Shown: one piece after another, positions 55,312 to 60,680 of the stretch | Position numbering within the stretch: position 1 is the stretch's first letter | Layout: each line of letters begins with the position of its first letter | From: Candidatus Bathyarchaeota archaeon | GTDB lineage: Archaea > Thermoproteota > Bathyarchaeia > Bathyarchaeales > Bathycorpusculaceae | DNA: 64,000 nucleotides | Assembly (NCBI GenBank): GCA_963828195.1 | Contig: CAWHDT010000007.1 | Location: forward strand, 192,001 to 256,000 | Direction: 5' to 3' | Position numbers and translations under genes: made by a program | The notes under the pieces: model-generated | What the model was told of the DNA's origin: nothing | What the model saw: only the letters and a program-made list of their open reading frames with translations | Database searches by the model: none

Positions 55312-55845
55312 TTGAGATGCGAAGTCTGCGGACACAAAATTCATGATGAACCCATAACGGCAGTGATTGAAGGAGCCAGACTAACCGTATGCGTTGAATG
55401 CTCAAAGCATGGAAAAATCGTCCATCAAGAAGAAGTGCCCCTGGCGACGCAAAAGAGCCCCCAAAAACCGCAAGCCCCCCCATCGCTGGTTCAGAGAAAA
55501 CCAGTTGTTGCAAGAGTTGAAATGACGCAGGAAATCACCGAGGACTACGCGACCAAAATACGGGTGGCGCGGGAAAAACTCGGTCTTACCCACGAGGAAC
55601 TGGGCAAAAAAATAAACGAGAAAGCCTCGGTTCTACGAAATCTTGAAGCCCGCAAAATGGCGCCCAACAACCAGTTAGCCTCAAAGCTTGAGCACATGTT
55701 AAAAATCAAGCTGCTTGTTCCCATCTCCGAAGAAAAAATTCCTCCTCCAACCTCGAAGTCCGCTAACCAAGAAATAACCTTGGGCGACCTCATCGAGATA
55801 GACAACAAGGACGAGGAGGCGGCTAACAAACGAAAGCCGTCATAG
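55312..55845 (+). CDS. mbf1: Archaeal multiprotein bridging factor aMBF1
   Basis: CEVCG...IEGA...VC..C Zn ribbon; IR.ARE..GLT.EEL HTH; TLGD. Confidence 0.93.
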   Translation: MRCEVCGHKIHDEPITAVIEGARLTVCVECSKHGKIVHQEEVPLATQKSPQKPQAPPSLVQRKPVVARVEMTQEITEDYATKIRVAREKLGLTHEELGKKINEKASVLRNLEARKMAPNNQLASKLEHMLKIKLLVPISEEKIPPPTSKSANQEITLGDLIEIDNKDEEAANKRKPS

Positions 55846-57101
55846 TTCAGCGCAGGCTAAACCGTGAAGAATCAAGTTTAGATGAGCTGAAAAGATTAGC
55901 TGAAGCAGCCGGATACACCGTTGTCGCCACGCTGGAGCAGACCAGGCCGCCCGACGCACGGTACCAAATAGGCGCCGGAAAAGTTGAGGAACTCGCGCAG
56001 ATGGTGCAGGAAAACGATGCGGGAAAAGTGATTTTTGACAACCAACTCAAAACCCGCCAAACATACAACCTCGCCAAAGCAACCCACGTCGAAGTCATCG
56101 ACCGCTTCCAGCTTATACTGGAGCTCTTCAACAGGCGAGCCACAACCACAGAAGCCCAACTTCAAATCCAGCTAGCTACCCTGCGAAATGAACTCAAACA
56201 CGCCAAAGAAAAAGTCAGGTTAGCCAAAGGAAGCGAGCAGCCAGGCTTCATGGGTCTTGGCGCTTACGAAGCAGACGTTTACCGCGACGCCATAAAACGG
56301 CAGGTCCAAACAATCCTCAAGAAACTGGAGAAAATCCGCGAAAAAAGGGTTCTGCATCGGGAGAGGCGAACAGAGCTTGGCTTATTGACTATTTCGCTTG
56401 CCGGATACACAAAGTCTGGAAAAAGCAGCCTGTTTAACGCTTTAGCCGAAGAAACCGTTGAAGTTGACAAAGCCTTATTCACCACCCTCTCCACAACCAC
56501 GCGGATGGTGCAGTTCTGCAACCGCAAATTCCTCTTAACCGACACCGTGGGCTTCATCGACCGCCTACCCCTGTCGCTCATCGAAGCGTTCCACTCCACC
56601 CTTGAAGAAACCATTTTTTCAGACCTCATCATCCTGGTTGTAGATTTAAACGAGCCCATGGAGAAAATCGAGAAGAAACTCGACGTCTGCAACGAAACAA
56701 TCGACCGCCTCGGCGCAGCAGGCATCCCCACCATAACCGCCCTAAACAAAATAGACCTAATCGCTGAAGCGGAAATAACCCAGAAACTCGAAGCCCTCAA
56801 AGACAAAATCAAAAAACCCATTCTCCTCTCGGCAAAATGCAGAATAAACCTAGACCAGCTGCGAGAGCAAATTCTTAAAATTCTGGAAAAGTACGTTCAA
56901 GCCCAATTCTGTGTCCCGCTGACCAACAGCGCCATGCCCTTCATTTCGTGGGTGCACGGCAAAACAGAAGTCAAAAAAGAAGTTTTCACCAACGATTCAA
57001 TCCAAGTGGAGTTTGAAGCGACGCCCGAGTTAAGTGAGCAAGTGAGAAGAAAAGTGGAAGACCTGCATGGCAAATTCACAATCAACCAAAAAACCAGATA
57101 A
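55830..57101 (+). CDS. hflX: Ribosome-splitting GTPase HflX with no canonical start codon
   Basis: HflX N-domain (ELKRLAEAAGY, YQIGAGKVEE, IDRFQLILELF) is in frame back to ACG at 55830; GYTKSGKS, DTVGF, NKID. Confidence 0.92.
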   Translation, partial: TKAVIVQRRLNREESSLDELKRLAEAAGYTVVATLEQTRPPDARYQIGAGKVEELAQMVQENDAGKVIFDNQLKTRQTYNLAKATHVEVIDRFQLILELFNRRATTTEAQLQIQLATLRNELKHAKEKVRLAKGSEQPGFMGLGAYEADVYRDAIKRQVQTILKKLEKIREKRVLHRERRTELGLLTISLAGYTKSGKSSLFNALAEETVEVDKALFTTLSTTTRMVQFCNRKFLLTDTVGFIDRLPLSLIEAFHSTLEETIFSDLIILVVDLNEPMEKIEKKLDVCNETIDRLGAAGIPTITALNKIDLIAEAEITQKLEALKDKIKKPILLSAKCRINLDQLREQILKILEKYVQAQFCVPLTNSAMPFISWVHGKTEVKKEVFTNDSIQVEFEATPELSEQVRRKVEDLHGKFTINQKTR

Positions 57102-57654
57102 CCCCCCCAAAATCGTAGTTTTAAGATGGGGACACAGACCGCAGCGGGATGTACGCTTAACCACACACGTTGCCTTAACTGCAAGGGCACTTTGCGCCTC
57201 AGGATTCATACTCTCCGACGTAGAAGACAAAAACATAGAGCAAACCGTAAAAAAAATAACTGCGCATTGGGGCGGCACCTTCCAGTTCGAAATGGGCATC
57301 CCATGGAAAAAAGTTGTCCGCGACTGGAAAGCGAGTGGCGGCATCGTGGTTCATCTGACGGCTTACGGAGAAAACATCCAAACAAGCGACGCCCTAAACA
57401 GAATAAAAAACACAAACAAAAACATCCTGCTCCTCGTCGGAAGCCAAAAAGTCCCAGGCGAATTCTACTCCAACGAAGTATCAGATTTTAACGTGGGAGT
57501 TGGAAATCAGCCCCATTCGGAATGTGCTGCGCTCGCCGTTTTCCTGGATCGTTTTTTTGCTGGTGAAGAGTTGGCTAAGGATTTCGGTGGAGCGAAAATG
57601 AAGATTGTGCCGTCTGCAAGAGGAAAGAAAATAAAAAACGACTCGGATCCCTGA
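57067..57654 (+). CDS. trm56: tRNA (cytidine56-2'-O)-methyltransferase aTrm56
   Basis: LRWGHRP.RD.R.TTHV, HLT.YG, GNQPHSE. Confidence 0.94.
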   Translation: MANSQSTKKPDNPPKIVVLRWGHRPQRDVRLTTHVALTARALCASGFILSDVEDKNIEQTVKKITAHWGGTFQFEMGIPWKKVVRDWKASGGIVVHLTAYGENIQTSDALNRIKNTNKNILLLVGSQKVPGEFYSNEVSDFNVGVGNQPHSECAALAVFLDRFFAGEELAKDFGGAKMKIVPSARGKKIKNDSDP

Positions 57655-57845: not shown

Positions 57846-60680
57846 TTGTTTGGGCTTTCAGGGGGTAAAGCTTTGGAAGACGAAAAGGTAAAGATAAAAC
57901 GGACCTATGGTTATGATATTCTAATAAATACATTCGAACCTTTTCTTAGAAGTTATGCCTTAAAAGTAATCTCTGCAAATTACGGTTTAGATTGGCAAAA
58001 ACATATTCCTCAAGGTGTAATCAACCAAGTTTTAGAAACTGGAAATTTAGAAAAAAATAAGAATTACGAAGTTGACGATTTTTTCAATGAATTGACTTTC
58101 CTAAATTTAAAGGACATACTATTAGCACTAGACAATTTCAAACTCTTTAAGGAATTTTTTGGAGCAATAAGTAAAGAAAAATTCGCAGAAACGATGGATG
58201 ATTTGAACATTTTTCGTCGGAAAATAGCACACTGCGGAGCTTTTAGTGAATTGGACTTGACAACACTAAAAGAGCACATAACCTTACTGAGCCAAGGTTC
58301 AGATGCAAAAGAGGTAAGGCAATACCTCGAAAATGAAGCTTACAAAAATGCGAAAGAAATACCCACCGAATTTTTTGAAGAGTATGATTTGCCCAATAAC
58401 TTGCCCCCAGAATCCTATGACCTTGACGGTGGCTTTGTTGGAAGGGAGAAAGAAATAAGGGCAATTAAGTCCTACATTAAATCTGGCGAAGACCGAGTTA
58501 TTACAATTACAGGCGCCGGTGGTGTAGGCAAAACTGCGATTGCCCTACGCATAGCTTATGCTTTTTTATGTGACCCTCAGACAAACTTTAGCGCAATATT
58601 GTGGTTTAGCGCTAAAAGGAATAAACTTACTGATGAAGGAATAGTTCCTATTAATCCGGAAATAACAAGTCACGAGAAATTGCTTAAAGATATAATCGGA
58701 GTACTCAGTAAGCCAACGCTTGATAGTTTCTTAAAGGCAAACGTTACTCTTCAGTCATATGCTGATTTTCTTAATGATTACTTCAAAAATAACAAATGCT
58801 TGTTAATCATAGATAATCTAGAGACTATCCTAAAGGATCAAGCTCTAATTCAATTTATTGAAGAAATTCCTCGTCCATCTCAGGTTCTAATTACTAGCAG
58901 AAAAGGTCTGGGCGAATTTGAGCGCAGGTACCCTGTTGGAGATATGCTTGATAAAGATGCATTAGGATTGTTTCGTATAGTGGCTAAGGAGAAGAATTTA
59001 ACTGATTTACAAAAGCTTGACAATGAATCAATACTAAAATTGGCCCGACGAGTAAGATGTTATCCTTTGTTAATCAAATGGGCAATCGGTCAAGTTGGTC
59101 TAGGAAAAGAAATTGAAAGAGCCTTTTCTCAGATATTCTCTGGGGAAAGTGAAATTGCAAAATTCGCCTTTGATGACATATTTAAAATGCTCTCGCCAAA
59201 TGCAGTGACTTTGTTATACTGCATGATTATATACGGTGATAAGCCGATTTCAAAGTCTATTTTGGCGCATTTAGCGAAACTAGGCGATGAGCAAACCGAG
59301 GAAGCCATCAAAGAATTAACTTTAGCGTCATTTGTTTTTCCCCAAATTCGCGTAGTTGAACAAGGGATGATGACAGAGTACACGATGCTCGAATTAACAC
59401 GTGGTTTTATAGAAGATAAACTGGATGAAGACGAAAGTTTAAGACAAGTATTATCCACGAGATTGTACCACTTGACAGAACAAATAACGGAATTCGAAAA
59501 GTCAAAAACGATTTATTCCCAATCTCTATTCCACTTGGGAATTAAAACTTTAGAGGAACAGATTGCTTTTAACTATGTAAAGGCTGCAAAGAATTTTTAT
59601 TTTCATGATGATGTTGTTAATGCTCAAAAAAACTTCGAACGGGCAGCCGAGACAGCACCCAACTTTTCATATGTTTTTACTGAATATTCAAAATTTAACT
59701 ACTCAAGGGGGCATATTGCTGATTCGCTGAAGCTGGCTGAAAAAGCGGTAACATCAAACCCTGCTAGTTTTCATGCCTGGTTTACCTACGGTTTACTTTT
59801 AGAACGTGTTTACAAATACAAAGAAGCATTAGAATGTCTTGAACGTGCAAAAAAGCTTAATCCGGGTCATTCGCCGATTTTCGAAGAAATGGGTCGCGTA
59901 TACATGATGATAGGAATGTATGACAAAGCCGAAATAGAGCTTACTACTGCTTTGAAAGACGAACAGTTGCCAAATAATAAAGATAGAGTGTATACGCTTG
60001 ATTGCATGGCTGAGAATTACAAGAGATGGGCTAAGGCAAGTTTTGAAAGGCAAGATTACGATGGTCAGATGAACTTCTTAAATAAGGCTTTGGACAATAT
60101 CGTACAAGCAATCGAATTAAGTCCTTCAAAACGTAAATTTCAAGAATCGTTTTTTAGAATAAGTGTGGACAAAGGAATTGCAACAACTAAAAAAGACGGT
60201 TTTGCTAGTGGAAAACTAATTCTAGAGAGATGCATAAACCAAGTCCAAATTGGAAAGCAATTGATAGCGCCAAACGATTATATTATTTCAAGAGCTTATT
60301 ATTACCTTGCATTATTGGGAAATAGAGACCCCACTACTCCAAAGGACCAGATAAATAAATGGATTGGTTTTGGCTTAGAAAAAGTACAAGACGATCGGCT
60401 AAAAATCCGATTAACTCAACTCAAAGAGCGCATGGATGGAAAAACAAAAACAAAGCACAGAAAAATTGGGAAAATCATAAAAATAGGTAACAAACACAAT
60501 TTTGGAATTATAGAATCAATTGGGGAAAGTTACTTATTTTTACCCAGCGGGTTCAGGACGCCTTTACCTGAGGAGCACTGGCAATATTTGATGGGTAAAG
60601 AAGTATCATATTCACTTAGTGCCGGAAAAAGCGGAAAAGCAATCGCTGTAGATATAGTAATAATGCCATCAAATAATTGA
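57846..60680 (+). CDS. STAND NTPase: Swt1-like HEPN + NB-ARC + TPR + C-terminal OB/cold-shock-like domain; putative antiviral NLR-like protein
   Basis: RRKIAH (Rx4H); FVGRE, GAGGVGKT, LLIIDNLE, ITSR, YPL; TPR helices; C-terminal GKIIK...FGII...YLF...V.Y...AVDI. Confidence 0.85.
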   Translation: MFGLSGGKALEDEKVKIKRTYGYDILINTFEPFLRSYALKVISANYGLDWQKHIPQGVINQVLETGNLEKNKNYEVDDFFNELTFLNLKDILLALDNFKLFKEFFGAISKEKFAETMDDLNIFRRKIAHCGAFSELDLTTLKEHITLLSQGSDAKEVRQYLENEAYKNAKEIPTEFFEEYDLPNNLPPESYDLDGGFVGREKEIRAIKSYIKSGEDRVITITGAGGVGKTAIALRIAYAFLCDPQTNFSAILWFSAKRNKLTDEGIVPINPEITSHEKLLKDIIGVLSKPTLDSFLKANVTLQSYADFLNDYFKNNKCLLIIDNLETILKDQALIQFIEEIPRPSQVLITSRKGLGEFERRYPVGDMLDKDALGLFRIVAKEKNLTDLQKLDNESILKLARRVRCYPLLIKWAIGQVGLGKEIERAFSQIFSGESEIAKFAFDDIFKMLSPNAVTLLYCMIIYGDKPISKSILAHLAKLGDEQTEEAIKELTLASFVFPQIRVVEQGMMTEYTMLELTRGFIEDKLDEDESLRQVLSTRLYHLTEQITEFEKSKTIYSQSLFHLGIKTLEEQIAFNYVKAAKNFYFHDDVVNAQKNFERAAETAPNFSYVFTEYSKFNYSRGHIADSLKLAEKAVTSNPASFHAWFTYGLLLERVYKYKEALECLERAKKLNPGHSPIFEEMGRVYMMIGMYDKAEIELTTALKDEQLPNNKDRVYTLDCMAENYKRWAKASFERQDYDGQMNFLNKALDNIVQAIELSPSKRKFQESFFRISVDKGIATTKKDGFASGKLILERCINQVQIGKQLIAPNDYIISRAYYYLALLGNRDPTTPKDQINKWIGFGLEKVQDDRLKIRLTQLKERMDGKTKTKHRKIGKIIKIGNKHNFGIIESIGESYLFLPSGFRTPLPEEHWQYLMGKEVSYSLSAGKSGKAIAVDIVIMPSNN

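Follow-up and report, generated by a model that had tools for sequence, protein, structure and literature searches.

A conserved ACG codon as the probable translation start of a bathyarchaeal hflX gene that lacks a canonical start codon

Introduction

Where does translation begin in a gene whose reading frame offers no start codon at the expected place? The question is raised by hflX in a 64,000-nucleotide stretch of DNA from Candidatus Bathyarchaeota archaeon (assembly GCA_963828195.1, contig CAWHDT010000007.1, positions 192,001 to 256,000 of the forward strand), which we refer to as the window and number from its first letter. The hflX gene overlaps the end of mbf1, and lies in the -1 frame relative to it. 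A first-pass annotation, made from the sequence alone, noted that the hflX frame is closed by a TAA at 55824 and contains no ATG, GTG or TTG until 56001. It further noted the ending of mbf1 (GAG GAG GCG GCT AAC AAA CGA AAG CCG TCA TAG), its -1 overlap with hflX, and a GGAGG at 55815-55819 placed 11 nt before the CGA codon. All of these observations are borne out by the sequence.

Three models were proposed at the time: (a) a -1 frameshift giving an MBF1-HflX fusion, (b) initiation at ACG 55830, and (c) a single T-to-C change at 55831 (by mutation or assembly error, or as a site for C-to-U editing) that destroyed an ATGA stop/start overlap. Our comparative data favor the second, whereas the fusion does not hold as a general route to HflX and the mutation or assembly error fails. 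We consider it likely that hflX is complete and functional, and that its translation is initiated at the near-cognate ACG 55830-55832, directed by a Shine-Dalgarno (SD) sequence and probably coupled to translation of mbf1.

Results

The product of the hflX frame is HflX over its full length, including the N-terminal domain. Read from 55827, it matches the GTP_HflX equivalog model TIGR03156 with 289.6 bits (cut-off 216.75), the match covering positions 3-349 of the 351 in the profile and residues 5-351 of the frame. The product carries three Pfam domains, GTP-bdg_N, GTP-bdg_M and MMR_HSR1, and matches solved HflX structures with an E value of 2e-50. At the junction, the frame runs TAA (55824-55826) CAA ACG (55830-55832) AAA GCC GTC ATA GTT, and its translation after the stop codon reads Q T K A V I V Q R R L N R E. 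The database protein of the window contig (P0006, 366 aa) begins at ATG 56001; a start there would cost about half of the N-domain, because GTP-bdg_N occupies residues 15-101. Database HflX entries for these genomes begin at varied downstream codons and are 366-424 aa long. An independent contig assembled from a public run (X2) is identical to the window over 55798-55956 and also has C at 55831. X2 is the sole contig that bridges the junction; a second one (X1) begins at 55829, too near its own end to count.

The junction was compared in two sets of genomes. In the first, 41 related genomes were searched, HflX was found in 40, and the junction was read in 30 returned loci. The second comprised 301 genomes of the class, of which 271 gave a match at E <= 1e-30; from the listed matches, 100 further junctions were picked by hand to represent the family, the order, other orders and a distant HflX type. 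The N-terminus could be aligned in 129 of these 130 loci, with no alignment for L126. Counts at the level of the order refer to 90 species genomes, the window included. Among relatives HflX is 52-92% identical, and internal stop codons are absent in nearly all matches.

The first 30 loci have ACG at the aligned codon in 28 cases, ATT in one and ACC in one, and in 29 of them no canonical start intervenes between the preceding in-frame stop and this codon. Across the 90 genomes of the order the codon is ACG in 74, ATG in 4, ACA in 4, ACT in 3, and ACC, ATT, ATA, GCA and GAC in one each; in 81 loci no ATG, GTG or TTG is found at this codon or upstream of it in the open frame. Such a recurrence, in 74 of the 90 genomes at one aligned position, puts an hflX without a start far beyond chance. 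In the window, ACG 55830 is one base away from AUG, lies at the N-terminal edge of the protein and has no canonical alternative.

Homologs outside this group locate the same codon as a start. Distant HflX genes of the class, which are about 40% identical and have no mbf1 upstream, carry ATG, TTG or GTG there in 10 of 10 cases, and in these genes the motif [KR]-A-[IV]-[IV]-V comes right after the start codon. In other orders, with mbf1 upstream, a canonical start is present at the position or 1-6 codons earlier in 22 of 29 loci; the rest have only ACG (4), only ATC (2) or neither (1). Within the order, a FastTree phylogeny of 115 rows (MBF1 plus the first 97 HflX residues; L005, L013, L066, L109 and ten distant loci were omitted) places the four ATG loci as single tips nested among ACG relatives. 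L052 and L080 of the order, and also L096 from outside it, have an ATGA overlap of the mbf1 stop with the hflX start, whereas the overlap in L059 is TAATG. TAACG is read in seven ACG loci and TGACG in one, where C takes the place of T in an otherwise identical overlap. ACG and canonical start codons therefore interchange at one aligned position.

The codons that follow ACG behave as coding sequence. The alanine codon at +6 is GCA in 31 loci, GCC in 28, GCG in 21 and GCT in 4, and all six arginine codons are in use at +21. Since the amino acid is kept while synonymous sites vary freely, translation must include the codons at +3 (K/R) and +6 (Ala). In L006, L012, L016 and L041 a stop codon immediately precedes ACG, so that translation of the frame either starts at ACG or enters there from another frame.

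The ACG also lies at a suitable distance from an SD motif. The spacer between GGAGG and ACG is exactly 10 nt in the window and in 61 of the 74 ACG loci (59 with a single GGAGG and two with a second copy). This falls within the range seen at canonical starts of long open reading frames (ORFs) of the window genome, where spacers peak at 7, 8, 9 and 10 nt, with 18, 18, 18 and 13 cases. The motif resides in the final ~13 codons of mbf1, which fall outside the TIGR00270 model, and the amino-acid sequence of the mbf1 tail around it is variable among relatives. The initiator tRNA of the genome is ordinary, with a CAU anticodon, A1:U72 and three G:C pairs, and a gene for aIF1/SUI1 is present. A special initiator tRNA for ACG was looked for among the tRNAs and none was found; tRNA-Thr(CGU) lacks initiator features.

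The distance between mbf1 termination and the proposed start is short throughout. In 73 of the 74 ACG loci, mbf1 terminates between -26 and +35 nt from the codon, most often at +13 (45 loci) or -2 (8 loci), the former corresponding to a 16-nt overlap of the two genes. In one locus, L032 (G197), mbf1 shares the hflX frame and terminates at a TGA four codons before ACG; here ACG is kept and an exact GGAGG is absent.

These data suggest a mechanism in which GGAGG in the 3' tail of mbf1, 10 nt before ACG, would hold the small ribosomal subunit so that ACG occupies the P site, where the initiator tRNA (CAU) would pair with it through a middle-base mismatch. Ribosomes that finish mbf1 probably also supply the hflX start by termination-reinitiation, given that mbf1 invariably terminates no more than a few tens of nucleotides away. 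Initiation at ACG is expected to be weak and sensitive to fidelity because of its imperfect pairing with the initiator tRNA. In E. coli, initiation from ACG does occur, weakly and with an N-terminal Met (bioRxiv 10.1101/063800). We infer that such a start would hold HflX low, and possibly regulated, relative to MBF1, and that it might respond to the fidelity of initiation.

Several observations weigh against initiation at ACG. Where mbf1 crosses the codon, ACG is invariant (60 of 60), but the mbf1 codon that overlaps it imposes a constraint of its own; moreover, an ATG in the common frame would create TGA and so, by definition, put the locus in the other class. The cleaner sample consists of the 30 loci in which mbf1 ends at or before the codon, and here ACG holds in only 14, the others having ATG (4), ACA (4), ACT (3), and ACC, ATT, ATA, GCA and GAC (one each). 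In three loci (L061, L077 and L081), neither the position nor the codons just ahead of it offer ACG, ATA, ATT or a canonical start, and in five ACG loci an upstream in-frame ATG or GTG could be used instead. The genomes are related, and the counts are therefore not independent trials. Where ACG has been measured it is a poor start, and AUU is discriminated against by aIF1 in Sulfolobus extracts (PMC4705826).

A second conserved gene with an ACG start was not found in the window genome either. A genome-wide scan for GGAGG followed after 7-10 nt by ACG, with at least 150 open codons and no canonical start nearby, returned two matches, hflX and an orphan gene without a homolog in 40 relatives. 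The orphan (G000 C5:344456-345226, minus strand; equivalent to L131:257-1027:-) has 256 codons and a weak FUR/winged-helix match, and follows an AT-rich intergenic region. Its start reads TAAGGAGG, 7 nt, then ACG, with no canonical start for 46 codons, and it may represent a second ACG start. In a coding-potential scan of start-less upstream extensions, hflX ranks 11th of 284. Three further genes, judged by eye from their translations, have no canonical start near their conserved N-termini. These encode an MvhD-like protein (G000 C5:388325-389098, minus strand), where an SD sequence is followed by CTG, a cytochrome oxidase subunit I-like protein (G000 C7:72631-74316, minus strand) and a homoserine O-acetyltransferase-like protein (C7:77463-78593, minus strand). 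Judging from these sequences, hflX may not be the sole gene of this genome with a non-canonical start.

Alternative explanations

Translation could start at another non-canonical codon, chiefly ATA 55842-55844, although we regard this as unlikely. The codon aligned to it is ATA in 65 of the 90 genomes and ATC or ATT in 12 more, its overlap with the mbf1 stop in the common arrangement would suit reinitiation, and relatives' database proteins of 418-419 aa beginning MVQRR or MAQRR are consistent with a start called at this position. However, isoleucine is needed at this site for protein reasons, and four members of the genus have TTA or CTA there. The K/R and Ala codons that lie upstream of ATA are conserved at the amino-acid level with free synonymous change, which indicates that they are translated. 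GGAGG is 22 nt away from ATA, and both the ATG variants and the distant homologs locate the start at the ACG position instead.

A related possibility is that ribosomes terminating on mbf1 restart on hflX without any codon requirement, and that ACG is kept for other reasons such as its overlap with mbf1. The proximity of the mbf1 stop fits this idea, as do the three loci without a plausible near-cognate codon and the restriction of invariant ACG to loci with mbf1 overlap (60 of 60, versus 14 of 30 without). Short-range coupling has been described in an archaeon, and reinitiation in Haloferax drops off within about 20 nt (PMC10666635). Nevertheless, three features of the loci speak for a codon requirement and make an unrestricted restart quite unlikely. 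First, ACG is enriched even where mbf1 does not overlap: it accounts for 14 of the 22 ACN codons in those loci, whereas it makes up 17% of threonine codons in long ORFs of the window genome. Second, loss of ACG is accompanied by another candidate codon just upstream: 7 of the 10 loci without a near-cognate codon have an in-frame ATA, ATT or ACG at -3 or -6, compared with 4 of the 74 ACG loci, and these codons often form ATAA or ATAG overlaps with the mbf1 stop. Third, in L043 (G214) the mbf1 TAG lies 23 nt before ACG, yet GGAGG, the 10-nt spacer and ACG have all been kept. In addition, mbf1 reads xAC GAx across the site in 10 loci, where ATG would arise from a C-to-T change that leaves the mbf1 product unaltered; the C is retained in all 10.

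The first-pass annotation gave prominence to a -1 frameshift into an MBF1-HflX fusion. As a programmed event, GGAGG would stimulate slippage at A_CGA_AAG (55830-55836), and the fusion would be the main or only source of HflX. The window carries the exact heptanucleotide with an SD-like sequence upstream, as at the incidental shift of Bacillus subtilis cdd (PMC5009743); the frame of hflX is -1, and reading in the zero frame ends at a stop four codons later. Across the order, however, this configuration is not conserved. Frame, stop position and slippery site fit together in only 37 of the 74 ACG loci, and HflX is intact in the rest as well. The frame of hflX relative to mbf1 is -1 in 60 loci, another in 12 and the same in 2, and the mbf1 stop precedes CGA in 14. 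In 31 loci the second hflX codon is not AAA (AGA, AGG, CGA, CGG, AAG, AAT or AAC are found), which destroys A_AAG. L041 has no slippery site, because CGA comes after ACG and a stop lies directly before ACG.

The tRNA set and the RNA structure also argue against a programmed shift. Slippage would be favored by a single tRNA-Lys reading both AAA and AAG, but the window genome has tRNA-Lys(CUU) beside tRNA-Lys(UUU), and CGA has a cognate tRNA-Arg(UCG). Folded alone, the window junction gives a z-score of -3.3, whereas RNAalifold finds no consensus pairs in 48 hand-picked loci of the 74, and thus no conserved stimulatory structure downstream. On these grounds the frameshift as the source of HflX is not borne out, and we consider it very unlikely. 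Between 55818 and 55841 the window can form a local hairpin (GGCGGCU...AGCCGUC) with ACG in its loop, which is also present in the closest relatives; the pairing is not conserved across the order.

The HTH_3 domain of MBF1 is absent from the best 120 database homologs of 233-742 aa, and a search of longer ones (743-2120 aa, a range outside which a fusion of ~600 aa would fall) returned only an intein-containing HflX and one other long protein. P0003 (887 aa), an HflX of a Bathyarchaeota genome, has intein and LAGLIDADG domains (PF14890, PF14528). One genome does have mbf1 and hflX in a single open frame of 593 codons (L058; G232:C8:88379-89479), but this results from an A/G run, immediately ahead of GGAGG, that differs by 1 nt, and reflects either a genuine fusion of the two genes or an error of sequencing; the locus retains GGAGG, the 10-nt spacer and ACG. 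In the window itself, a low-level incidental -1 shift may occur and give a minor fusion product.

Editing of the mRNA from C to U would convert ACG to AUG, as happens in plant organelles. ACG and ATG do alternate at the site among relatives; we know of no C-to-U editing of mRNA in archaea, and consider this explanation highly improbable.

That hflX is a pseudogene, or its ACG a private mutation or assembly error, has nothing in its favor beyond the missing canonical start and next to no chance of being correct, given ACG in 74 of 90 species genomes, an HflX that is intact at 52-92% identity, and the identical X2 contig. The first-pass annotation had itself named ATGA in close relatives as the sign of such an error, and relatives conserve ACG instead, which refutes it. 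The evolutionary premise of this model, an ATGA overlap differing by one base, does stand, given the ATGA and TAATG loci described above.

Genomic context

The coordinates of the features discussed here are collected in Table 1. The mbf1 product belongs to aMBF1: it scores 149 bits against the equivalog TIGR00270 (cut-off 110), with positions 1-158 of the 159 in the profile matching residues 2-163, and has a Pfam HTH_3 match. The genes are ordered NAC, a TGT_C2/PUA protein, mbf1, hflX and aTrm56. Close database homologs are labelled Candidatus Bathyarchaeia or Bathyarchaeota.

Table 1 Positions of genes and sequence elements at the mbf1-hflX junction, in window coordinates.
Feature	Position	Strand	Remarks
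mbf1 (aMBF1; zinc ribbon and HTH)	55312-55845	+	TTG start; TAG stop at 55843-55845
GGAGG, SD motif in the mbf1 tail	55815-55819	+	10 nt before ACG
TAA closing the hflX frame	55824-55826	+	two codons before ACG
ACG, proposed near-cognate hflX initiation codon	55830-55832	+	
hflX coding sequence, proposed	55830-57101	+	423 codons and stop
Possible site of an incidental -1 slip, A_CGA_AAG read in the mbf1 frame	55830-55836	+	
ATA, alternative non-canonical start	55842-55844	+	overlaps the mbf1 stop TAG at 55843-55845 (ATAG); 22 nt from GGAGG
ATG, first canonical start in the hflX frame	56001-56003	+	57 codons into the protein
aTrm56 tRNA 2'-O-methyltransferase gene	57067-57654	+	35-nt overlap with the hflX 3' end

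Just downstream of this translation-related cluster sits a gene for a 944-aa STAND-type NTPase (window 57846-60680, plus strand) that has a Swt1-like HEPN domain at its N-terminus as well as TPR repeats. The GC content there is 0.38-0.41, compared with about 0.49 before it.

In Crenarchaeota, mbf1 adjoins hflX and a tgt-related gene (PMC3062615). The gene order of the window fits this neighborhood; the relevant part of that report gives the neighborhood only and makes no mention of the start codon.

Discussion

The mbf1-hflX neighborhood, near-cognate start codons, coupling across overlaps and the cdd frameshift are all known. The absence of a canonical start from hflX is confirmed here, while its reading as a fusion by frameshift is not supported. 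To our knowledge, ACG is not among the start codons of NCBI table 11. In the literature that we searched (the main text of open-access papers and preprints), we came across neither an archaeal ACG start nor this feature of hflX.

A close parallel is bacterial infC, where a near-cognate AUU start is used for expression control. The likeness lies in a deviation from AUG by one base, a conserved gene start, a good SD sequence, a translation-factor gene and occasional interchange with ATG. In contrast to starts of the infC type, the codon here is ACG, with its mismatch at the middle base, and the organism is an archaeon with aIF1 and aIF2 rather than IF3. ACG initiation also occurs in eukaryotic and viral mRNAs. 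Such starts, like edited organelle codons, have ACG where AUG is expected, but they depend on scanning or editing machinery, whereas the gene described here lies in an SD-led prokaryotic operon.

In B. subtilis cdd the overlapping downstream gene is of the GTPase type, as at the mbf1-hflX junction. The cdd site has the same heptanucleotide, A_CGA_AAG, with an SD sequence upstream and a zero-frame stop nearby (PMC5009743). There, the shift does no more than lengthen the upstream product, and the downstream gene is served by a separate start whose SD sequence lies upstream of the site. Unlike cdd, the mbf1-hflX site is usable in only half of the ACG loci, and the tRNA set is unfavorable to slippage. 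The geometry is the same as that of ATGA and TAATG overlapping pairs, for which archaea and bacteria use termination-reinitiation (PMC10666635). In contrast to those pairs, the restart codon of hflX would be non-canonical, and a 16-nt overlap is the commonest arrangement.

The conservation of ACG and the geometry of the junction are observed directly, and initiation at ACG would account for both. A bolder proposal is that ACG is a selected regulatory device, which would gate HflX by aIF1-dependent start fidelity and by ribosomes finishing mbf1, so that HflX rises when translation is disturbed, with a minor -1 fusion added in genomes that have A_CGA_AAG. We regard this as possible, if doubtful; if it is correct, hflX would provide the first description in Archaea of a natural ACG initiation codon with deep conservation.

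For annotation, our results imply that the hflX start is misplaced by gene callers in these genomes, the entry of the window contig lacking half of the N-domain. ACG has been kept across an order although a single C-to-T change gives ATG, which suggests a need for weak or conditional initiation in the case of a ribosome-rescue factor. The locus would offer a natural and testable case of SD-led non-AUG initiation, together with coupling, in an organism with eukaryote-like initiation factors, and MBF1 and HflX, two ribosome-associated proteins, would be linked at the level of their translation.

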